A stretch of 64,000 nucleotides of DNA. It comes from a virus. Taxonomy: Duplodnaviria > Caudoviricetes. Positions 6,014 through 59,837 of this stretch are shown in pieces. Within the stretch, counting starts at the first letter, position 1; every line of letters starts with the position of its first letter. A program made the translations under genes and the position numbers. The notes below the pieces were generated by a model, which did not search any database, was not told the origin of the DNA, and saw only the letters and a list, made by a program, of their open reading frames with translations. The stretch spans positions 1 to 64,000 of the IMG/VR virus record IMGVR_UViG_3300022906_000002, one strand, 5' to 3'.

Positions 6014-6680
6014 ACCGACCGCCGCGCCGGCACCGTATCCCTGGAACTGTTCGGCTTGCGGGAAGCCGCAGAGGACCGGCAAGGCGGGATTCGACGACCT
6101 CAAAGGGCTTTGCTACGACTGCGACGAAATCCAGCGATACACGCCGACCCGCGGGCAGATCGCCGACTACGCGGACGTTCCTCCCGCCTACCGGCGCGGA
6201 GCGTTCAAGGAGCCGGCGGCGTGGCCGGTCGAGCTTCTCCGCGGCGGAAACCTCGCAGAATGGAAGGGCAAGCCCTGGTCTGTGGTTCTGACGGGCGACG
6301 CCGGGGCCGGAAAGACGACGCTCGCCACCGAAATGTTCTACCGCGCGGCGGTTGCCGGGATGCGCCCCGACGGCTGCCTGTGGATTCGCGCATCCCAGCT
6401 CTCTGCGGCGCTCGACGGCCCCGACCGGGAGCGCTGGCGGATTCGCGCCAACGAGGCGCGCGTCGCCGTCTTCGACGACCTCGGCAGGGAATTCAGTTCC
6501 GGTGGAATTCTTCGGCTTGTCGAAATCCTCGCCACCCGCTTTGACTACCAGCGGCCGACGATTGTCACGACGAACATGCCGTTCGTCGGCCGGGGCGGGA
6601 TCGACCAGCTCGACGCCGGACTGTTTCGCCGACTCTCTGAGGGCTATCTGGTCGAGATGACGGGGAGCTGGAGGCCGTGA
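6003..6680 (+). CDS. DnaC/IstB-like AAA+ helicase loader
   Basis: N-terminal Zn finger, Walker A GDAGAGKTT, VFDDLGRE, PTIVTTN. Confidence 0.85.
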   Translation: MEIEPTAAPAPYPWNCSACGKPQRTGKAGFDDLKGLCYDCDEIQRYTPTRGQIADYADVPPAYRRGAFKEPAAWPVELLRGGNLAEWKGKPWSVVLTGDAGAGKTTLATEMFYRAAVAGMRPDGCLWIRASQLSAALDGPDRERWRIRANEARVAVFDDLGREFSSGGILRLVEILATRFDYQRPTIVTTNMPFVGRGGIDQLDAGLFRRLSEGYLVEMTGSWRP

Positions 6681-8128
6681 GCGGAACCAACGGCACGAAC
6701 GGCAAGGCGAGCGGCCGGAGCATGGCTGACGTTCTCGCGCCGTTCCCCGGGCACGCCATGGGCGCGCTCGGCCCGAACAGCGAAGAGGCGGAGCGTGCCG
6801 TTTTGGCCGGGTTCCTTTTGGAGAACGGCTACATTGCGAACTTCTCGCTAGAGCCAAGGCTCTTCTACGGCGAGCGGCACCAGATCCTCTATGCGGCGAT
6901 GGCCGAACTGTGGGAGGAGGGCGAGCCGATCGACCTGCGAACGATGCAGGCGAGGCTCGAAGAGAAGGCGCTTTTCGAAAAGGCGGGCGGAATATCCTAC
7001 CTCGCGAACCTAGATCTCGACCTGCCGGACCTCGGCCGGCTCGACTCCTACGTCGGGATCATCAAGGATCGAGCGTTCCGCCGGGACTACATGAACGAGG
7101 CGACGCGCATGATCCGCGCGGCGAACGACGGGACGAAAGACCAGGCCGCGCTCATCTCGGCGCTACAGACGGCGATTCTGAAGCTCCAGAGTAAAACGGA
7201 GGCACGGACGGACGACTTCAAGCCGCTCGGGCCGGAGGCCGCAGCACTTCTCGACGAAATCGAGGCGACCGCGCCCGGGCATTCGCCCGGGGTGACGACC
7301 GGATTCGCCCCGATCGACACGCTCACGAACGGAATGTCGCCCGGGAAGTTTTGGGTTCTCGGTGGCCGGCCGGGTGCGGGAAAGACGGCGTTCGCCTTGA
7401 ACGTGGCGATGAATCAGGCGGAGGCGGGAATTCCGGTATCGTTCGTGTCGCTCGAAATGAGCATCCGCGGGCTGGTAGTTCGCGTGCTGTCGAGCGGGTC
7501 CGGGGTGAGGTCGCGCCGGTTTCTGCGCGGCTATTCCGACGCTATGGAGCGGGATAGCATGCGGCGGTTCGTGAAGCAGGCGGAATTCCTGCCGCTGTAC
7601 ATCAACGACCAGCCGGCGCAGAGAATCGAGAAGATCGGCAACTTTGCCCGGGCGCTGGTCGCCAAGGGCATGTGCCGCGTTTTGATGCTCGACCACCTCC
7701 GGCACATCCTCTGCGAAGCGATGCGGAGCCGGACAGAGGAGATCGCCTTCATCACCCGGTTCCTTGTGGGGCTCGCGAAAGAGCTGGATATCACGGCGGT
7801 ACTCTTGGCGCAGCTGAACCGAAACATCGAGCACCGGGGGCCGGACGCGATCCCGATTCCCTCTGACTTCGAGGGCGGCGGCTCGATCGAGCAGGACGCG
7901 GACGTGATCGCGTTTCTTCACCGCGACCAGACGAAAGACGTCGCGGGTACTCACGTCGGATCGCACTTCATCGCCGCTAAGAATCGGGACGGCGACACCG
8001 GCCGTCCGCCGAAGGAAAAAGGGATCGCGCCTGACGGGCCAGACCTCATTTTTGACCGCAGCACCACGACGTTCTTTCTTCCGGCGCCAGAGGTTGACGC
8101 GTCCGGATCTTGGGGAGGTGAGCAGTGA
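6677..8128 (+). CDS. dnaB: replicative DNA helicase
   Basis: EAERAVLAG, GRPGAGKTAF, VSLEMS, AQLNR, GSIEQDADVI, AKNRDG. Confidence 0.95.
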   Translation: MSGTNGTNGKASGRSMADVLAPFPGHAMGALGPNSEEAERAVLAGFLLENGYIANFSLEPRLFYGERHQILYAAMAELWEEGEPIDLRTMQARLEEKALFEKAGGISYLANLDLDLPDLGRLDSYVGIIKDRAFRRDYMNEATRMIRAANDGTKDQAALISALQTAILKLQSKTEARTDDFKPLGPEAAALLDEIEATAPGHSPGVTTGFAPIDTLTNGMSPGKFWVLGGRPGAGKTAFALNVAMNQAEAGIPVSFVSLEMSIRGLVVRVLSSGSGVRSRRFLRGYSDAMERDSMRRFVKQAEFLPLYINDQPAQRIEKIGNFARALVAKGMCRVLMLDHLRHILCEAMRSRTEEIAFITRFLVGLAKELDITAVLLAQLNRNIEHRGPDAIPIPSDFEGGGSIEQDADVIAFLHRDQTKDVAGTHVGSHFIAAKNRDGDTGRPPKEKGIAPDGPDLIFDRSTTTFFLPAPEVDASGSWGGEQ

Positions 8129-9568: not shown

Positions 9569-10026
9569 AAATCGCCGTGGCCGGAGCCCGCGACGGAATC
9601 GTCACCGCCGAGCAGGCCAAGATCTTCGGCCGAATCTGGCGGCACCTTGGCGGCTCCATCTTGCTCCACGGCTGCTGCCCGGCGCGCGGCACACTGAAGA
9701 CCGACGGCGTACCGGAGCGAATACGCGGAGTAGACGCATGGGCTCACGAACGGGCGACGGCGCGCGGTATCCCGGTCGAGACGTTCCCGGCGCTTCAGAT
9801 CGCGATCGGCTGGCCACGGTGCGGCCCGGAGCGAGTCCGCCGAATGGTGAAGGCCTGCGATGTGGCCGTAGCCTTCCCGGGCGGCAAGGGGACGGAAAAC
9901 TTCCGAGACTTCGCGATCGAATTCGGAAAACTGCTCTACGACATACCGTTGGAGTCGGCCGAAGAACATAGAATCATCGCAACGCCGCGAGCATTGACGC
10001 CCGCGGAACTGGAGGGGATGCCATGA
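9565..10026 (+). CDS. SLOG-family protein (DUF2493/YspA-like)
   Basis: KIAVAGARD, LLHG, GVDAWA, GPER..RM, VAFPGGKGT. Confidence 0.8.
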   Translation: MKIAVAGARDGIVTAEQAKIFGRIWRHLGGSILLHGCCPARGTLKTDGVPERIRGVDAWAHERATARGIPVETFPALQIAIGWPRCGPERVRRMVKACDVAVAFPGGKGTENFRDFAIEFGKLLYDIPLESAEEHRIIATPRALTPAELEGMP

Positions 10027-10259
10027 ACGAACGGGAAGCGGGAAGCTCGATTGATCCTTGGGACGATTCGCGGGTGAACTTGGGGCAGTGGCCGCGAATG
10101 GCCGCCCCGACATCGATCGACCCGGACGGAAGACCGAATGCCGACGGCGGAAGCGCAATCCACCCGATTGGCGATCCGGCCGCAGACGGGGCGACCGGGA
10201 TTGATCCGGTAGGGCTCGACGGGAGCTCGATCATCGATCCCGTCGGCGGAGTCGCGTAG
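10023..10259 (+). CDS. 78-aa peptide with five I-D-P-x-G-type repeats
   Basis: SSIDPWD, TSIDPDG, SAIHPIG, TGIDPVG, SIIDPVG; GGAGG RBS and ATGA overlap. Confidence 0.6.
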   Translation: MNEREAGSSIDPWDDSRVNLGQWPRMAAPTSIDPDGRPNADGGSAIHPIGDPAADGATGIDPVGLDGSSIIDPVGGVA

Positions 10260-23025: not shown

Positions 23026-24435
23026 ATGCCCATGAATACGCTACCTTTCCGCTTGGCCGTCTTCGTTGCGTTCGCCGCCGCATCGGCATCCGCGCAGACC
23101 AACAACGCGATCAAGGTTGCGCAGCTCCTGGAGTGCAACGCCCGGCGCCAAGGCCGAATGGTGACGGTCAGCGATGCGTCACCGGATTGCACGACAGGCA
23201 GCGGCGTGTCCGGCACTAAGTACGCATTGTGCATCTGTAATCCGGCGACCGGATGGTTCACGCTCTCCGCCGGTACGACCGGCGCCAGTTCGCCGACGGC
23301 CGAACAGAAGGCGGCCATGGGCGGCACGTCCGGCGCGCCAAGCGCGTCGAATCTCTTCGTCACCGATGCCGACTCGCGGAACGCGGATGCCCGGACCCCT
23401 ACGGCCCACCAGGCCAGCCATCTCCAGGGCGGATCGGATGCGCTCTCCGGCACGCTTGCCGTAAGCATTGCCGGCAACGCCGCGACCGCGACCTCAGCGA
23501 CGACGGCCGCTTCGGCAATCTCGGCAGCGACGGCGCTCGGGGTAAGCGGCTTTGCCGCGTCCAGGTGCGCCAGGTTCAACGGCAGCGGGGTCCTCGTGGC
23601 TGCGGCTGGCGACTGCGCTTCAGGCGACACGGACACCCAGGGCTCCGGCACGGTCACATCCGTTGCCGTGGCGACCGCGAACGGGATCAGCGGGATCGTA
23701 GCGAATGCGACCTCTACGCCGTATATCACCTTGAGTCTGGGAGCTATCACCCCGACTTCGGTCGCCGCCTCCGGAGCGGTCACCGCCTCCAATATCAGCG
23801 GCACGAATACAGGCGATCAGGTCAACATCTCGGGCAATGCGGCGACCGCGACGATGGCCGCCGGAGTCTCCGGCTTCACGGCCTCGCGATGCGCGCGCTT
23901 CAACTCTTCCGGGGTCCTGGTCGCGTCCTCGGGCGACTGTTCGGCAGGAGACACCAACGCGGGCGGTACGGTTACGACGGCATCGGTCACTTCGGCGAAT
24001 GGGGTGTCGGCGTCCGTGGCCAACGCCACGACGACTCCGGCGTTCACCTTCGCCCTCGGCGCGATTACCCCGTCCTCAGTGGCAGCAACGGGTGCCGTCA
24101 CCGGCTCGAACCTTTCGGGGACAAATACCGGCGATCAATCGAGCGTCACCGGGAATGCTGGCACGGCTACGGCGCTCGCATCCAACGGCTCTAACTGCGC
24201 GGCAGGGTTCCTCGCCGCTGGAGTAGACGCTTCGGGTAACGCCGAGGGATGCACGGCGGCCGGAGCGTTCTCGATCATGCAACTCACCCCGCGGGCCACT
24301 CCACCGTTCACCTGCGATGCCGGCCACGCGGGCGCCGTCTACTTCGACAACTCGGGATCTGGCACCTTTTGCGATTGTGCGGGCGACGGGTGGATTAACC
24401 GGTATACCCTGCGGCTCGGTAGCGGTTGCGTATGA
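23026..24435 (+). CDS. signal-peptide-bearing, Cys-containing fibre-like repeat protein
   Basis: RLAVFVAFAAASASA|Q signal; duplicated GF.ASRCARFN.SG.LVA and GTVT..ANG...SGTNTGDQ repeats. Confidence 0.7.
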   Translation: MPMNTLPFRLAVFVAFAAASASAQTNNAIKVAQLLECNARRQGRMVTVSDASPDCTTGSGVSGTKYALCICNPATGWFTLSAGTTGASSPTAEQKAAMGGTSGAPSASNLFVTDADSRNADARTPTAHQASHLQGGSDALSGTLAVSIAGNAATATSATTAASAISAATALGVSGFAASRCARFNGSGVLVAAAGDCASGDTDTQGSGTVTSVAVATANGISGIVANATSTPYITLSLGAITPTSVAASGAVTASNISGTNTGDQVNISGNAATATMAAGVSGFTASRCARFNSSGVLVASSGDCSAGDTNAGGTVTTASVTSANGVSASVANATTTPAFTFALGAITPSSVAATGAVTGSNLSGTNTGDQSSVTGNAGTATALASNGSNCAAGFLAAGVDASGNAEGCTAAGAFSIMQLTPRATPPFTCDAGHAGAVYFDNSGSGTFCDCAGDGWINRYTLRLGSGCV

Positions 24436-24439
24436 AGCC

Positions 24440-26203
24440 TTGGATCTCCAAACCCCCGTCCGCGTAGAAACCCTCGCCGACAAGGACGAGTGGTGGCCCC
24501 TCGAAGTCAGGCGCCGTCGCGATCGGGCCAAGGTATTCGACCGACTCGCGCGGTCCAAGTTGCCGGCCGACCACGCGATCATTGAAGCCGAGCGCGAGAG
24601 GTGCCGGCGAGACGTCAAGTACTGGATCGACAACTACTGTTGGACGAAGGCCCCGCAGGATCTCTCGCCCGACAATCCATACCGCGGCACCGTGCCCATG
24701 GTTCTCTGGCCGCGGCAGCGCGAGCTAATCGACTGGATTCTGGAGATGTACCACGCGGGCCGATCGGGGATCGTGCCGAAGGGGCGTGCGACCGGTGCCT
24801 CATGGATCATGTGCATGGTCATCTTCTGGCTGTGCTGGCATCAGCGAGGATTCGGGGCGCTGATGATTTCCAGGAAAGAGGACCTGGTCGACGATACGGG
24901 CAAGAACGACCGGAAGCGAGCGGCGGACGGAGGCGCGGCAGGCACGAGCACCGACTCGCTGTTCGGCAAGATGGACTTCATCTTGCGGTGCCAGCCGTCA
25001 TGGCTGCGGCCGCGGGTCGAGTTGCCGCGCGCGCCGATGGAGATGCGATTCCTGGACACCGATGCCCTGGTGACCGGCGAATCGACGAACGCCGGAGCCG
25101 GAGCCGGCCCCCGGAAATCGCTCAACTTCGTGGACGAGATGGCGAAGATGGAGCCCTCGATTCAGACTTCTCTCTGGCGTACGCTCGTTGCCGCGACCGG
25201 CCGATCGACGATTGCCGTCTCGTCACCCGGCAGCCCGTGGGCGCGCTTCGAGACTCTGCGGAAAGACTTGGAGCCCGATGCCGTTTTCGAGGTGGACTAC
25301 GACGCGGACCCGAGGCGCGATGAAGAATGGAAGCGGCGGGTCATCGCCAACCTCGGGGGCATTGACGACTTCCTGATCGAGCACGGCATGCGGCCCGTTC
25401 GCCCTTCCGCCGGACGCATCTGGTCGAAATCCACGTCGGGCTCCGTCTTCTACACCGATGCCCAGCTCTTCGACATCGAGCCGGACGCGCGGAAGAGGTG
25501 GCAAGTCTTCGGCGCGTGGGACTTCGGGAGCGGGCCGTCTCTTCTCGTGTGCTTCCTGTTCCTCGTCGAGTTCCGGGGCGGAGGGTACCGGCTATGGCTC
25601 GATCAGGAAATGACGTGGGAGCAAGAGGACTGGCGCAAGGTGGCGTCGGACATCCTCGACGGTAAGCAGGACGAGGATGGCGCCATCGTCGGCGGGCTGC
25701 GTCCGAACTATGAGAAATTCGGGATTCACTTCGGCGACCCCTCGGGCATCGCTCGGGAGTCCGATCAAAACTCCTGGGTAACGAATCTCCAATCGGGCGG
25801 CGTGCCGGTCCACGCGCTAGACGGAGAGTGCAACACCCGCGACCAGCGCGAATGGCAGATCCGCAAGGTCGGCGCCATGCTCTACGATGGCACGCTCCGG
25901 GTCCACGAGCGGTGCAAGTACGCGCTCGACTGTATCGATAGCTGGACGCGCGATATCCCGAAGGGCCAAACGGTCGAGAGCAGCGGGAGCGTGTACCTCA
26001 AGCCGAAGCACGACAAGTGGAGCCACGGGGGCACGGCTTTGTGCTTCGGGGTCGCGGGCATCCTGCCGGCGGCATCGGCCATGCTCGATGGCGGAAGCGG
26101 GTCGTCGGACTACCAGAGCGAGCGCGAGTACGGATACCACCCGGCCGCGCCGAGTTACATCGACGACGGCGGGAGTTTAGACTCGATTCTGGCGCAGTTG
26201 TGA
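24440..26203 (+). CDS. terL: terminase large subunit
   Basis: LWPRQ, PKGRATGASW (Walker A), FVDEMA (Walker B), VSSP, AWDFG, GDPSG. TTG start inferred. Confidence 0.88.
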   Translation: MDLQTPVRVETLADKDEWWPLEVRRRRDRAKVFDRLARSKLPADHAIIEAERERCRRDVKYWIDNYCWTKAPQDLSPDNPYRGTVPMVLWPRQRELIDWILEMYHAGRSGIVPKGRATGASWIMCMVIFWLCWHQRGFGALMISRKEDLVDDTGKNDRKRAADGGAAGTSTDSLFGKMDFILRCQPSWLRPRVELPRAPMEMRFLDTDALVTGESTNAGAGAGPRKSLNFVDEMAKMEPSIQTSLWRTLVAATGRSTIAVSSPGSPWARFETLRKDLEPDAVFEVDYDADPRRDEEWKRRVIANLGGIDDFLIEHGMRPVRPSAGRIWSKSTSGSVFYTDAQLFDIEPDARKRWQVFGAWDFGSGPSLLVCFLFLVEFRGGGYRLWLDQEMTWEQEDWRKVASDILDGKQDEDGAIVGGLRPNYEKFGIHFGDPSGIARESDQNSWVTNLQSGGVPVHALDGECNTRDQREWQIRKVGAMLYDGTLRVHERCKYALDCIDSWTRDIPKGQTVESSGSVYLKPKHDKWSHGGTALCFGVAGILPAASAMLDGGSGSSDYQSEREYGYHPAAPSYIDDGGSLDSILAQL

Positions 26204-26216
26204 GGTAGGATTGCAG

Positions 26217-26291
26217 AGTCGGGTAGAGGAGTCCGGAGTCCTCGGTGGTCTCATAAGCCGCAGATCGCGGGTTCAAATCCCGCCCCGGCAA
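26217..26291 (+). tRNA. tRNA with CAT anticodon (Met-type), no encoded CCA
   Basis: Cloverleaf: AGTCGGG/CCCGGCA, GAGG/CCTC, GTGGT-CTCATAA-GCCGC, GCGGG-TTCAAAT-CCCGC. Confidence 0.85.
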
Positions 26292-26295
26292 ATGC

Positions 26296-26372
26296 CTGAG
26301 CTTGGGCCAGTCTGGTCGGTCACCGCGTTTGGGGCGCGGACTACAGAGGTTCGAATCCTCTAGCTCAGACCA
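26296..26372 (+). tRNA. tRNA-Pro(TGG), CCA encoded
   Basis: CTGAGCT/AGCTCAG-A-CCA, CCGCG-TTTGGGG-CGCGG, AGAGG-TTCGAAT-CCTCT. Confidence 0.92.
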
Positions 26373-50679: not shown

Positions 50680-50991
50680 ATGACGATCATCGCGATAGCG
50701 GCAATGCAGGTCACGGCACGGGGCGGGGCCGATGCGATCCTTGAGAATGCCGTCGGCATCATGCTCGCTCTGGCTATCGGTCAAACCGTGGCCGGCGTGG
50801 TCGCTTTGATCGGACTGAACGCCAAGGTCAACCAGTTCATGAGTGTACAGTTCCCTGCGCTGCAACGAAGCCTTGACGAGACGAACCACAATCTGCGGGA
50901 CTTGCGGGACGAGTTCGCAGAGTTGCGGGAGAAGGTAGTCCGCCATGACGAGCGCATCGAGCGCCTAATCTCTGAGAGAGGACACCGATGA
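50680..50991 (+). CDS. TM plus coiled-coil membrane protein (holin-like)
   Basis: Hydrophobic helix followed by heptads ending HDERIERL; after the tail genes. Confidence 0.45.
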   Translation: MTIIAIAAMQVTARGGADAILENAVGIMLALAIGQTVAGVVALIGLNAKVNQFMSVQFPALQRSLDETNHNLRDLRDEFAELREKVVRHDERIERLISERGHR

Positions 50992-51275
50992 ATGCAGACC
51001 GCCAGCGCCGCATCGTTCGGGTCCAGTTCGATGGCGTTACCATGCCCAGTTGGGCCGCCGTGGCTCTGGTCATCGCATCCGTCTTTTCCGCGACCCTGTT
51101 TCTTTTTGGTATCGTCACGATCCGCGATCTCGTTCGGGAAGTGAGAGTGCTACAGATTCACGTGCAGGACATCGAATCTGCGTTGATCGATGCCGGGCTC
51201 GTGGACCGAAGGAACATTGCAGGATGGACGGCCGGAGATAACCAAAGGCCGCGAGACGAGGAGCGCGAAAAGTGA
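50988..51275 (+). CDS. single-TM protein (possibly lysis-related)
   Basis: WAAVALVIASVFSATLFLFGIV; coupled. Confidence 0.45.
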   Translation: MNADRQRRIVRVQFDGVTMPSWAAVALVIASVFSATLFLFGIVTIRDLVREVRVLQIHVQDIESALIDAGLVDRRNIAGWTAGDNQRPRDEEREK

Positions 51276-51535
51276 ACGAGATGACAGGAGCACCCACGGG
51301 AGCGCCAGTGGCCATTCTTGGCGGAAGACCCTGCAAGGCAATCATCAACGGTGATCTTCAGAACACGGCCGACGACATCGGACACCTGATTCTGGCCATG
51401 ATCTTCGCGAGCATCAGCGGATCAGTGGAAGCGCTGACGGCCAAGGAGCTGGAGGTCATCAAGGAGCACGCCGGCCCGCTGCGCGAAGTTTGCTGCGCCG
51501 CTACCGCTCGTATCGAAGGACAGCTCCCGGGCTAG
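51272..51535 (+). CDS. hypothetical protein
   Basis: GTGA-coupled. Confidence 0.5.
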   Translation: MNEMTGAPTGAPVAILGGRPCKAIINGDLQNTADDIGHLILAMIFASISGSVEALTAKELEVIKEHAGPLREVCCAATARIEGQLPG

Positions 51536-51603: not shown

Positions 51604-51774
51604 TTACTTCTCGATCGATTCGACCGACATGACGACGGCATCAATGCCCGGCCATTGAGCCATCGGCGGATCAAGGACACCGATCCGGGCCGCGTGATAC
51701 TGAACCCATGCTCGGACCTGTTCGGCTGCGGCTCCTTCTGGCGCCTTGACGGTCATGGTAACGGTCCACTTCAC
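51604..51774 (-). CDS. hypothetical protein
   Basis: AAGGAGG RBS; coupled. Confidence 0.45.
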   Translation of the reverse strand: MKWTVTMTVKAPEGAAAEQVRAWVQYHAARIGVLDPPMAQWPGIDAVVMSVESIEK

Positions 51775-52091
51775 GGCTTGCCCTCCTTGCACTGCGGCAG
51801 GTCGCTATCAAGCGCGCACGGGTCGGCGGGATCATCCGGCCCGTCGGTGTCGCCGACGGGGAAAGTCGGAATCGGCAAAAGTACGCACTCGGCGCCCAAG
51901 ATGCGAATCTTGCCGCCCATGGGATCGCATATGGCTGTGCCGTCCATTCGCACAGCGAACTCTCCGATCCCGGCGCAGCGCATGACGTGCGTGGGCGGCG
52001 ACGGATCGCAGGGATTCGGATGAGATGGACCGCACCCGGCCGCGATGATTGCTAGGCTTAGCAGGGCGACGCGTGCGGTCTTCGCGGCCAA
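51771..52091 (-). CDS. Cys-rich lipoprotein
   Basis: KTARVALLSLAIIAAG|C lipobox; six further Cys. Confidence 0.6.
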   Translation of the reverse strand: MAAKTARVALLSLAIIAAGCGPSHPNPCDPSPPTHVMRCAGIGEFAVRMDGTAICDPMGGKIRILGAECVLLPIPTFPVGDTDGPDDPADPCALDSDLPQCKEGKP

Positions 52092-55568: not shown

Positions 55569-55755
55569 CGGCGGCGTCCTCTTCCTTGTCGCGCTCGCCG
55601 ATCGTGAGCAGTGGGCCGGCAACCGCGTGCGCGTCTCGGTGCTCGCCGCAGTGGCGGCAGTGGCCCATGCGCGGCAGGTAAATCGGGCCGAGCGCCGGAA
55701 TCAGGTTGACGCTTTGTTCTTCCTCGAATTCATGCTTCAGCGGATCGCGATCCAT
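55561..55755 (-). CDS. hypothetical protein
   Basis: AAGGAG RBS; HEF...CRHCG...H. Confidence 0.55.
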   Translation of the reverse strand: MDRDPLKHEFEEEQSVNLIPALGPIYLPRMGHCRHCGEHRDAHAVAGPLLTIGERDKEEDAADA

Positions 55756-55798
55756 GGGCGTCTTCTCCTTTTGGCGAGCAGCGCGCTCGACTTGAGAA

Positions 55799-55835
55799 AT
55801 AGTGACACAGTCACTAACGCTTGTCAACGTGACAA
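55799..55835 (-). promoter_or_regulatory. leftward promoter overlapped by two palindromic operator-like sites
   Basis: TTGACA-17-CACTAT (minus strand); AGTGAC-ACA-GTCACT and TTGTCA-ACG-TGACAA. Confidence 0.7.
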
Positions 55836-55902
55836 ATCGCAGAACGCCGCACTCGCTTCATCGTCAAGCGCAACCTGCGCGCAGTGCTAAACTCCCGCCC
55901 CA

Positions 55903-56298
55903 ATGGACCACTCGATCCTCATGTACGTCCGGGACCGCTGCATCACGTCAATACCGTTGCTGGTGGCGCTGGTCGTCGGAAACGCGCTGATCGCCGCCTG
56001 CTACCTCTACATTCCCGCCGTCCTCGACCGCATCGCTCGGGCCATCGGATCAGACTCCCCGGGCTTCCACGAGATCCGCGGCACGGCCCGGTTCGTGCGC
56101 GCCTGCGGATTCACTCACGTGGCGTCGATCGCCGTTTTGTTTTGGCCGGGGCTCGATTGGCCCGCCGTCTTCGTCCTGGCGCTGACCGGCGTCGTCTCGG
56201 CCGCTTTCGCCGCCCGCCTGCATGCGCACTACCGCGAGATCATCCGGGAGTTGGAGGCGGCACGAGAGCTGCGCGCGTTGAGGTCGGCGAATGTCTGA
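55903..56298 (+). CDS. stand-alone ethylene-receptor (ETR1)-like 3-TM sensor domain
   Basis: GNALIAACYLYIP, FVRACGFTH, LTGVVSA match ETR1-type SD.FIA.AYFSIP, FIVLCGATH, LTAVVSC. Confidence 0.75.
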   Translation: MDHSILMYVRDRCITSIPLLVALVVGNALIAACYLYIPAVLDRIARAIGSDSPGFHEIRGTARFVRACGFTHVASIAVLFWPGLDWPAVFVLALTGVVSAAFAARLHAHYREIIRELEAARELRALRSANV

Positions 56299-57007
56299 CC
56301 GGGTGGACGGGTGGGTGACAGAGCACTGGGATGGCATCGTTGGCGGCGGGGCGGCCGGCTTCATGCTGCTCCGCGAGCTGTACCGGATGTGGACGGAGCG
56401 CTCCAAGATCGCAGCGGACACGGCGCGCGACCACCGGGCGGAGGGCGAGGGACTCGTTTCGCAGGCGCTGGCCATGGTCAAGGAGCTTCAGGCGCGCGAC
56501 GACCGATCCCAGAAGGAGATCGCGGATCGCGGCACGCGGATCGAACGGCTTGTCGCCGAACTGGAGCACGTTCAGGAGGCGCACGAAGCGCTCGGCCGCG
56601 ACGTCGGCCGCCGCGGGCTCGCGATCTTGGCCGAGGAGCTAATCGACCCGATCGACTCCTTGGGCGGCGTTCTCGACGCGCTGCCCTGCGCCCTAGTCGT
56701 CACGCGCAAGCACGACGGCCGATTCATTTTCCCGAACCGCGTGTTCTGCGAACTACTCGGCGCCTCGCGGGCCGATCTCATCTCGCAAAGCTGGCGCGAT
56801 CGCATCGCCCCGTCAGATCTCACGGCGACTATGGCGATTGAAGCCAGGGCGCTCGGTGAGCCGGTCGAGATCGAGAACAGCTACCGAACGGGTCCGAACG
56901 CGGATGGGCCGTTGGTGCGACTGCACTGGTGGGCCGCCCGGTATGCCAAGGGCGGGGTCTCGATCGCCTACGCCATGCCGGTCACGCGGGGTCAGGACGA
57001 GACTTGA
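56291..57007 (+). CDS. TM-coiled-coil-PAS domain protein
   Basis: Short hydrophobic N-terminal helix, heptads, then LDALPCALVV..DGRFIFPN..FCELLG.S..DLI..SW.D.IAP.D PAS signature. Confidence 0.8.
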   Translation: MSDRVDGWVTEHWDGIVGGGAAGFMLLRELYRMWTERSKIAADTARDHRAEGEGLVSQALAMVKELQARDDRSQKEIADRGTRIERLVAELEHVQEAHEALGRDVGRRGLAILAEELIDPIDSLGGVLDALPCALVVTRKHDGRFIFPNRVFCELLGASRADLISQSWRDRIAPSDLTATMAIEARALGEPVEIENSYRTGPNADGPLVRLHWWAARYAKGGVSIAYAMPVTRGQDET

Positions 57008-57122: not shown

Positions 57123-57284
57123 TCAAGAGGGATCGACGGAAGCGACGTAGCGCTGCGGGAATACTGCGGCGAGCACTACGGCCTTGATCGTCCTCCGCTC
57201 TGCCGCGGCGCGGGCGAGGATCTCTATGTGCTCTTCGTCCGTGAGTTCTACGTATAGGTGCTTCGGTTTTGGCTTCTTTTCCAT
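57123..57284 (-). CDS. RHH-like protein (53 aa)
   Basis: Translated by hand: KHLYVELTDEEHIEILARAAAERRTIKAVVL; GGAGG RBS. Confidence 0.55.
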   Translation of the reverse strand: MEKKPKPKHLYVELTDEEHIEILARAAAERRTIKAVVLAAVFPQRYVASVDPS

Positions 57285-58904: not shown

Positions 58905-59837
58905 ATGGCCACCGACAAGCTATCTTTAGTTATTGCTGAGGGGTGGGAGGGCGGCGGAACGCTTGCCGCGAGCTACAGCCCTATCGTCGAAGCCTTCGAA
59001 GAGCGCGCCCCGGGGATCGTTCACCACGCCGGGACATCCGCGGGGGCTATCACCGCGCTCCTGCGGGCCATTCTCGCTCCGGCCGCGCACATCCGGGAGT
59101 TGCAAGAACTGACGCCGTGGGACCGATTCGCTGGATACCGGCCGCCCGCTTTCATCCGCCTGCTCCTCCGCGGCGGATGGCACCCGATCGACTACGCGCG
59201 CTCATGGATCGCCGATCGCCTCCGGGACGCGGGGCTACCGAACGGCCTCACGTTCGCCGGGCTCAAGAAGCGCAAGGGGCACTCGCTCTACGTGGCGGCC
59301 ACGCGGTATTTTCGCCACGTGGACGGCGGCGTCGAAGCGGAGCCCTACTTGTTCAGCCCCGCGACTACGCCGGACGCCCCGGTGGGTGCCGCGGTCCTTG
59401 CTTCGATGGCGGTGCCTCTCTTCTGGCCTCCGGTCGGCGTCGGCGGCTGGTTCTTTTGCGACGGAGGAGTCGCACAGAATCATCCGCTTTCCGTCTTCGC
59501 GCAGTTCCCTCTAGAGCAGATCGTCGGCATTCGGCTCGACTCGCGGAGGGAGCTGCTCTTCGAATCCGGGGAGATCGCCAAGGAACCGGTGCGGCCGGGA
59601 ATCGGCGGAATCGTGGCCGCGAACGCCACCATGCTCCGGACGATTGCAAACCGGACGTTTGTCCCGGATACCCTATGGCCGCGGATTATCCGAATCGACA
59701 CGGGAGACGAGAGCGCCCTGGACTTCCGGGCGAACCCGGATCGGTTGGTGCGACTGCGGGCGGCTGGGTCCGCGGCGCTCGACTCGTGGCTGGCGATGGA
59801 GGAGCATAATTCTGAGCTCCAAGGAGCGAGACGATGA
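58905..59837 (+). CDS. patatin-like phospholipase
   Basis: EGGG oxyanion loop, GTSAG nucleophile elbow, ASMAVP.F.P, DGG. Confidence 0.92.
   Translation: MATDKLSLVIAEGWEGGGTLAASYSPIVEAFEERAPGIVHHAGTSAGAITALLRAILAPAAHIRELQELTPWDRFAGYRPPAFIRLLLRGGWHPIDYARSWIADRLRDAGLPNGLTFAGLKKRKGHSLYVAATRYFRHVDGGVEAEPYLFSPATTPDAPVGAAVLASMAVPLFWPPVGVGGWFFCDGGVAQNHPLSVFAQFPLEQIVGIRLDSRRELLFESGEIAKEPVRPGIGGIVAANATMLRTIANRTFVPDTLWPRIIRIDTGDESALDFRANPDRLVRLRAAGSAALDSWLAMEEHNSELQGARR

Follow-up and report, generated by a model that had tools for sequence, protein, structure and literature searches.

The stretch of DNA analyzed here (the window) corresponds to positions 1-64,000 of a linear IMG/VR viral contig of 96.7 kb (record IMGVR_UViG_3300022906_000002; CheckV completeness ~73%) and carries phage genes for a portal, a head protease, a major head protein, and a tape measure protein. 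Two overlapping open reading frames (ORFs) on its + strand, ORF A and ORF B, are the subject of this report. Leftward genes lie on both flanks of the pair, so the rightward island in a leftward region that an initial annotation of this DNA had pointed out is real. ORF A encodes a small protein that is, by profile and alignment, a bona fide stand-alone member of the ETR1-type ethylene-binding domain (EBD) family, and ORF B encodes a partner with a long helix and a C-terminal PAS domain (Table 1). The nearest cultured relative of the major head protein is that of Rhizobium phage RR1-B (28% identity), which together with the window G+C content of 65% suggests that the host of this phage is alphaproteobacterial.

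ORF A is recognized by the Pfam model ETR1_N (PF25487) with 40.4 bits against a gathering cutoff of 27 (E 3.7e-10) over profile positions 3-93 of 97 (91 covered), and the Pfam search found no further domain in it. A six-frame search with the same model gave one match in the phage genome (40.3 bits) and none in 14 control genomes, indicating that the model does not fire on generic membrane helices. The protein has three hydrophobic helices by hydropathy, and its AlphaFold2 model, built from a 22-sequence alignment (pLDDT 92.3), contains helices at residues 17-48, 55-80, and 82-108 followed by a C-terminal helix at 110-130. This last helix is charged and Arg/Glu-rich, and the protein stops 23 residues past helix 3. 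Sequence, hydropathy, and model thus confirm the length, the three hydrophobic helices, and the motifs listed in the initial annotation. From the charge distribution, the N terminus would lie outside and the C terminus inside the cell.

An exhaustive HMMER search of 1.84 billion representative sequences with ORF A returned 114 relatives, the top 14 of which (E < 1e-10) are all 123-140 aa long. Nearly all relatives match ETR1_N in their own right, including 21 of 22 close ones (best E 4e-25) and all 91 distant ones (best E 1.4e-41); among the latter, PAS domains occur in 10 and kinase domains in 13. The initial assignment of ORF A to the ETR1-type domain had named the lack of a profile match as its refutation, and with a Pfam match above cutoff that refutation fails; Foldseek against the PDB found no structural match for the ORF A model at E <= 0.001 (best 0.23), and a sequence search for a solved ETR1 membrane domain found none. 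Two other structural or profile leads were set aside: a wide VIA-align search with the model matched only BAR domains and generic bundles of helices, its best Z of 10.8 being lower than chance gives for helical models, and matches to PspM/Rv2743c and CyanoTRADDas_TM lay far under their cutoffs. A word-based search for longer, fused relatives found none. No match was obtained by tblastn of ORF A, P0013, and P0031 against 50,697 GenBank phage records or by blastn of the region, and pattern scans confirmed no relative in IMG/VR (A1, P0013, P0007) or, with A5, in 185,579 species genomes and in JGI metagenomes.

The residues that form the ligand site of ETR1 are largely retained. In ETR1, Cys65 and His69 (CxxxH, helix 2) are the Cu(I) ligands. 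Aligned with Arabidopsis ETR1, ORF A has C68 and H72 at these two positions, Y34 at Tyr32, I37 at Ile35, and F64 at Phe61. Y34, C68, and H72 are invariant in the 22 close and 91 distant relatives, and C13, I37, and F64 are nearly so; within the close clade, Y34 is kept in 22/22, I37 in 20/22, and P38 in 18/22. At the position of Ile62, ORF A has V65, a conservative change (V in 13 and I in 9 of the clade). Tyr32, Ile35, Pro36, and Ile62 are four of the seven residues of Arabidopsis ETR1 (AtETR1) that are needed for ethylene binding. The position of Lys91 in the ETR1 numbering presumably maps to a hydrophobic residue in ORF A. These alignments bear out the residue pattern first read from ORF A, in which the Tyr, Ile, Pro, Cys, and His equivalents are kept and Asp25 is replaced by Asn. 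The putative metal held by the Cys/His pair would most likely be Cu(I).

ORF B overlaps ORF A by 8 nt, as annotated initially, with its ATG at 56291 and the TGA of ORF A at 56296-56298. A GAGG Shine-Dalgarno sequence inside the end of ORF A, 7 nt ahead of this ATG, implies that ORF B is translationally coupled to ORF A. Both genes are strongly coding by their G+C content at third codon positions (GC3; 0.86 for ORF A and 0.84 for ORF B). The ORF B model consists of one helix, residues 9-118, and then a PAS fold. The latter is recognized by PF00989 (29.0 bits against a cutoff of 22.6) and TIGR00229 (28 bits against 22.9), and its top Foldseek match in the PDB is 8px4 (E 1.7e-7, TM-score 0.86-0.88, root mean square deviation 1.8 A), the top matches all being PAS or LOV domains. 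A LOV NCRFL-type motif was not seen on reading the PAS sequences of the window, L010, and L005, with no dedicated cofactor test made. A conserved motif, EGEG-L/I-x-x-x-AL, lies in the helix/coiled-coil part. The N terminus is Gly/Ala-rich and weakly hydrophobic (residues about 13-31), and its best 17-residue Kyte-Doolittle mean of 1.01 (residues 15-31) is under the transmembrane threshold. Of the initial description of ORF B as a membrane protein with a transmembrane segment, coiled coil, and PAS domain, profiles and model uphold the long helix and the PAS fold, and the hydropathy does not confirm the membrane part. The charges around the N-terminal segment are acidic before it and basic after it; membrane insertion of the segment, should it occur, would place the coiled coil and PAS domain on the cytoplasmic side, as expected for this type of PAS. 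A complex prediction of ORF A with ORF B residues 1-120 scored 0.00, which is evidence neither way, and ESM Atlas neighbors of the N-terminal part of ORF B are viral hypothetical proteins (score 0.88), a lead only.

To place the pair in context, gene order was read in 12 independent phage-like contig lineages of A-like genes (relatives' contigs are given L numbers, such as L010). A partner gene lies downstream of A in 12/12 lineages wherever the sequence continues, overlapping it by 1-14 nt or, once, separated by an 11-nt gap. All partners share a weakly hydrophobic N terminus, an EGE-x-I/L-F-x-R/Q-A-L-type motif, and a coiled coil, and the split arrangement of A followed by its partner with a ribosome-binding site recurs down to 30% identity. 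Among the partners, those of the window, L010/L004, and L005 form the one subclade with a PAS domain, and no other partner has an intact PAS. In L002 and L003, the partner has lost ~95 aa in frame, comprising its coiled coil together with the first half of its PAS, and the reading frame stays open. Judged by this restriction to one subclade and the half-deleted copies, the PAS is a late add-on that is dispensable in at least one lineage.

Both genes are under purifying selection, with ratios of nonsynonymous to synonymous substitution rates (dN/dS) of 0.21-0.24 for ORF A against close relatives and 0.11 for ORF B against L010. Homology with L010 starts ~7 nt ahead of the start codon of A and ends at the end of B, so that the two genes travel jointly as a cassette. 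In a maximum-likelihood tree of 112 ETR1_N domains, a quick search on few columns, ORF A falls in a clade made up entirely of stand-alone proteins (SH-aLRT 100), across the tree from every one of the 30 fused proteins. From this tree, the ORF A clade is old, monophyletic, and composed only of stand-alone proteins. The PAS of ORF B is not detectably related to the PAS domains of fused EBD proteins, to which it gives one weak 13-bit match. No HisKA, HATPase_c, or receiver (Response_reg) domain occurs in ORF A, ORF B, or the 96.7 kb phage record, in keeping with the initial statement that the pair has no kinase or output domain.

Table 1. Coordinates of the ORF A/ORF B locus in the window, and gene order at A-like loci of related contigs
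Feature	Position	Strand	Basis or remark
Divergent intergenic region, 147 bp	55756-55902	.	between leftward 64-aa gene and ORF A
ORF A, stand-alone ETR1_N protein, 131 aa	55903-56298	+	Pfam PF25487, model, GC3, dN/dS, tree
Codons of C68-G-F-T-H72 motif, helix 2	56104-56118	+	TGC 56104-56106, CAC 56116-56118
GAGG Shine-Dalgarno of ORF B, within end of ORF A, 7 nt ahead of ATG	56280-56283	+	sequence
ORF B, partner protein, 238 aa	56291-57007	+	weakly hydrophobic N terminus, long helix, C-terminal PAS
ORF B residues 9-118, long helix/coiled coil common to all family partners	56315-56644	+	model, alignments, hydropathy/charge table
ORF B residues 122-230, PAS domain	56654-56980	+	Pfam PAS, Foldseek against PDB
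Deleted partner genes	L002 10392-10823; L003 1431-1862		natural variant, three contigs from two runs
Gene order, L010/L004			Dam-type methylase, VanY/M15 endolysin, 5-nt gap, A, B
Gene order, L012			M15 endolysin overlapping A by 4 nt, then partner
Gene order, L006			GH24 phage lysozyme (PF00959, E 9e-7), 7 nt ahead of A
Gene order, L005 and L011			M15 endolysin 2.2 kb and 3.9 kb away, respectively
Gene order, L008			pair after small membrane genes (one a homolog of window gene 50988, E 8e-11), ahead of Lipase_3 gene
Gene order, L009 and L013			pair after tail genes
Gene order, L015			weak endolysin-like gene and protein with two transmembrane helices after pair

Lysis genes are frequent neighbors of the pair. 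An endolysin gene lies immediately upstream of A in 3/12 lineages, and its class varies (M15 twice, GH24 once) while the adjacency is kept. With ~100 genes and a single endolysin, the random expectation of such adjacency is ~2%, and 3/12 gives a rough binomial probability of ~2e-3, which is our own estimate for lineages that are not fully independent. The early guess that the pair acts on lysis timing gains support from these three lineages. In L015, a 158-aa gene with an SxHxxGxAxD-like motif was considered as an M15 endolysin and is counted as weak, as it has no Pfam match, a blastp E of 0.03 to P0006, and a weak PHROG endolysin match (E 0.004).

Taken together, A and B are best explained as a conserved, mobile two-gene module of the lysis region in a group of uncultured tailed phages with probably alphaproteobacterial hosts. 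Relatives have the pair directly behind an endolysin gene or, where the late operon ends, among small membrane genes; most likely, therefore, its output acts on membrane permeabilization itself. We tentatively propose, at a little short of an even chance, that A and B form an accessory lysis-control module of a holin- or antiholin-like kind. In such a module, A would sit in the inner membrane as a dimer, N terminus out and C terminus in, with a metal bound by its Cys/His pair, and B would lie at the cytoplasmic face of the membrane against the charged C-terminal helix of A. The two proteins might thereby rebuild noncovalently the "EBD - helix - PAS" front end of a bacterial ethylene receptor such as AzoEtr1, without phosphorelay output. 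A would be holin-like or antiholin-like, either forming the hole itself or timing another holin, and its triggering would depend on the state of the metal site, whether in copper load, in redox, or through a small hydrophobic ligand. B would then be a cytoplasmic regulator of A, and in the PAS subclade a second input, from the cytoplasm, would come in through the PAS domain.

Several observations weigh against the lysis-control module. The window pair is not adjacent to an endolysin, six common endolysin queries gave no match in the 96.7 kb record (~73% complete), and the pair has its own divergent upstream region. L005 and L015 hold separate holin-like genes with two transmembrane helices beside an endolysin or endolysin-like gene, which means that A need not be the holin. 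ORF A does fit the form of a holin (131 aa, three transmembrane helices, charged C-terminal tail), but this form is not specific to holins, and no holin-family match was found for it in Pfam (E up to 10) or PHROGs (E up to 1). In 3/12 contexts, the available sequence contains no lysis gene, and the dispensability of the PAS counts on the same side.

The ligand question adds to these points. The equivalent of Asp25 in ORF A is N27, and the clade of 22 has N in 16, D in 3, H in 2, and S in 1; the same position in 30 fused relatives is D in 17 and N in 11. Asp25 is another of the seven residues needed for ethylene binding in AtETR1, where it is thought to position His69; alanine mutants at this position abolish ethylene binding, and the D35A variant of AzoEtr1, an EBD-PAS-histidine kinase of 525 aa from Azospirillum brasilense, was made as a predicted nonbinder (PMC11819568). 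Given the Asn at this position and these mutant results, ethylene is doubtful as the ligand of ORF A, and we file ORF A as a member of the domain family and not as a predicted ethylene binder. Candidate ligands are copper or redox state, or a small hydrophobic molecule.

A more specific version of lysis control would have the phage gate lysis by a metallo-sensor: occupancy or redox state of a membrane Cu(I) site would trigger the holin or antiholin, the partner would relay a PAS-sensed cue, and burst timing would follow an environmental or metabolic signal without any kinase. Copper, oxygen or redox state, or a small ligand that is unsaturated or gaseous could be the signal at the Cu(I) site. 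We regard this version as quite improbable. If the pair does control lysis, in this or another way, no earlier holin- or antiholin-type system would rest on a fold for metal and small-molecule sensing, and the module would offer a direct handle on how phages might adjust burst timing to copper, redox state, or volatile signals in plant-associated habitats.

Other genes of the window and of its relatives may also bear on lysis. At 1.9 kb downstream from the pair, the window has an intact gene for a patatin-like phospholipase (58905-59837, +; Pfam E 7.5e-21), whose PADLOC matches to phospholipase effectors are only weak, and lipase genes are found near the pair in relatives as well (patatin ~4.8 kb away in L011, Lipase_3 0.7 kb away in L008). 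Since the phage record has no recognizable endolysin, a lipase may be part of the lysis apparatus. Straight after the tail genes are three small genes without Pfam or PHROG function (50680-50991, 50988-51275, and 51272-51535, all +). The first two encode one transmembrane helix and a coiled coil each, making them holin- or spanin-like candidates; both match post-tail genes of L002, and the 50988 gene is homologous to the gene two upstream of the A-like gene in L008 (E 8e-11). A 106-aa ORF at 51771-52091 (-) has a lipoprotein-like start (…LAIIAAGC) followed by a Pro-rich part, in the style of an o-spanin but long and on the opposite strand, and has a homolog at 4360-4701 of L002.

Among the alternatives to a lysis-control module, the one that survives best, though we consider it unlikely, was already raised as a decoy in the initial annotation. 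ORF A, with ORF B, would be a sensor or decoy that heterodimerizes with or mimics the EBD-PAS-kinase front end of a host protein. During infection or lysogeny it would bias or block a two-component pathway that responds to ethylene or copper, and it would take no direct part in lysis. ETR1 dimers are disulfide-linked, and the near-invariant N-terminal Cys (C13) of A-like proteins is reminiscent of this. The order of A and B mimics an EBD-PAS architecture, and PAS (10/91) and kinase domains (13/91) do occur in distant relatives; most partners in the family lack a PAS, however, and the PAS of ORF B shows only the 13-bit likeness to those of fused EBD proteins. EBD-PAS-histidine kinases exist in alphaproteobacteria (AzoEtr1; PMC11819568), but no close relative that could serve as the mimicked host protein was found among 185,579 species genomes, and the ORF A clade is old and apart from all fused forms. 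In favor of a decoy, the pair in the window stands apart as an island and has a separate upstream region. Leaf litter is a place where ethylene is plausible, and the sole sequencing run containing the stretch is a leaf-litter metagenome (no RNA run is listed), but this run is probably the source sample itself and so not independent evidence. We find the decoy idea not supported, as it leaves unexplained both the PAS-less partners and the endolysins of two classes directly upstream of A.

Upstream of its ATG, ORF A lacks a Shine-Dalgarno sequence, and the end of a -10-like hexamer, TAAACT, is 9 nt from this ATG; given these two features, the ORF A transcript could be leaderless. The divergent 64-aa gene starts with an ATG at 55755 and has the minus-strand ribosome-binding site AAGGAGAA. 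Because homology to L010 begins only ~7 nt ahead of ORF A, the upstream region is specific to the window phage. It contains two palindromes, GTGACacaGTCAC (55802-55814) and TTGTCAacgTGACAA (55821-55835), each unique in the window; as candidate operators they were rejected, being unique yet not above chance statistically. At the other island-type loci, no clear motif is common to the upstream regions. Just downstream of ORF B, a 53-aa ribbon-helix-helix protein is encoded at 57123-57284 (-), with a ParD antitoxin match of E 3.4e-5 (24.6 bits against a cutoff of 27.3).

The island layout of the pair would suit a membrane moron with its own promoter, possibly expressed from a prophage, that changes the inner membrane or periplasm and so serves in superinfection exclusion or in buffering envelope or copper stress. 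Islands with a divergent promoter-like region occur in the window, L002, L005, L007, and L011, the module has been swapped as a unit between mosaic genomes, and it is typical of exclusion genes to encode small membrane proteins from independent promoters. This explanation is nonetheless decidedly unlikely in our view: the direct, sometimes overlapping junctions with endolysin genes in three lineages point to late co-expression, and an invariant intramembrane Cys/His/Tyr set is not known in exclusion proteins. Moreover, no integrase was found in the phage record, and no PADLOC defense model matches A or B.

It is very improbable that the pair is a conventional lysis set, with B an i-spanin (Rz-like), A a class I holin, and the likeness to ETR1_N functionally meaningless. 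In outline the proteins would do, since A has three transmembrane helices and ends in a charged tail, the short partners (100-120 aa), in which a hydrophobic segment at the N terminus precedes a coiled coil, look Rz-like, and the host is probably Gram-negative. In detail they would not: the N termini of the partners are mostly under transmembrane hydropathy, their charges put the coiled coil inside the cell, the partners of the window's subclade carry a PAS of cytoplasmic type, and no lipobox ORF is embedded in or follows ORF B. L005 has a separate gene with a transmembrane helix and coiled coil and a signal-peptide gene ahead of its endolysin. A Tyr/Cys/His core that is invariant in more than 110 proteins down to ~25% identity argues for a conserved ligand site and against a generic holin.

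We give virtually no credence to the view, named in the initial annotation as its own refutation, that the pair is a decayed, frame-shifted, functionless fragment of a host EBD-PAS kinase: A and B do lie in adjacent frames, with EBD then PAS as in AzoEtr1 and no output domain, but the dN/dS of 0.11-0.24 and GC3 of 0.84-0.86, the recurrence of the split pair with its ribosome-binding site in 12 lineages, an ancestral partner form without PAS, a PAS not detectably related to that of fused proteins, and the place of A in an all-stand-alone clade with no fused close relative found reject it.

Among the closest described systems is AzoEtr1, which belongs to the same ETR1_N family, has three transmembrane helices and the Cys/His/Tyr/Ile/Pro core, likewise carries a PAS after the membrane domain, and comes from the phylum of the probable phage host. 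In contrast to AzoEtr1, the phage version is split into two genes, has Asn for Asp, has no kinase or receiver in the record, carries a PAS not detectably related to those of fused relatives, and has its membrane domain in a separate all-stand-alone clade. Arabidopsis ETR1 and ERS1 and Synechocystis SynEtr1 have in common with ORF A the CGxTH of helix 2, the AY..IP of helix 1, and a Cys before helix 1. Unlike them, ORF A has Asn at the Asp25 position and no GAF, kinase, or phytochrome output, and its gene is in a phage and in relatives part of a lysis cassette.

On the side of lysis, the pair can be compared with phage holin/antiholin pairs, such as S105/S107 of lambda, T of T4 with RI and RIII, and LydA/LydB of P1. 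It resembles them in combining a small protein with several transmembrane helices and a charged cytoplasmic tail with a small coupled partner, next to an endolysin in several relatives. Like RIII, ORF B could work from within the cytoplasm; alternatively, like RI, it could make use of its weakly hydrophobic, signal-anchor-release (SAR)-like N terminus. The pair differs from them in having no sequence or profile similarity to any known holin or antiholin family, in the metal-site-like intramembrane Cys/His/Tyr core, and in a partner with a PAS, and hole formation by A is hypothetical.

To our knowledge, the EBD has been known only as an input module of receptors with attached kinase, GAF, or cyclase domains. 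Full-text literature searches found no paper tying ethylene receptors or their binding domain to phages or holins; in one review, the single mention is of an exchange of histidine kinases with giant algal viruses. For the papers searched, the initial claim that no phage system like this has been described thus stands, but databases already name such proteins automatically: the ESM Atlas has clusters of 122-138 aa called "ethylene receptor 1-like N-terminal domain", and about half of their members with a recorded taxon are tailed phages. These clusters share with ORF A the domain, the size, and the lack of an output domain. Compared with other stand-alone phage ETR1_N proteins, the present case has a conserved coupled coiled-coil partner across the clade, a PAS added on in one subclade, and a pair detached from a recognizable endolysin. 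As far as comparative sequence data go, what is new here is the obligate, translationally coupled family of coiled-coil partners (obligate in the 12 lineages sampled), the PAS-bearing subclade, the finding that both genes are under purifying selection, and a position in the tree apart from the fused receptors. In a whole clade of phages, selection has kept the EBD as a membrane protein of some 130 residues with no other domain attached. With Asn at the Asp25 position and no output domain, ORF A is a minimal natural EBD that is suited to structural work and to the question of the ancestral ligand.

Three further observations concern other genes of the window and its relatives. Genes for tRNA-Met(CAT) and tRNA-Pro(TGG), 4 nt apart, lie at 26217-26372 (+) of the window, just past a 628-aa ORF (24317-26203). 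L002 carries at 6506-7795 (-) a gene of the adenylosuccinate synthetase family (PF00709, 429 aa), which includes PurZ of 2-aminoadenine phages; none is present in the record of the window. L013, a phage-like contig of the NCBI metagenome-assembled genome GCA_040384425.1, encodes at 9791-10030 (-) a protein of the Acb2/Tad1-hairpin family, the family of anti-CBASS/Thoeris sponges.

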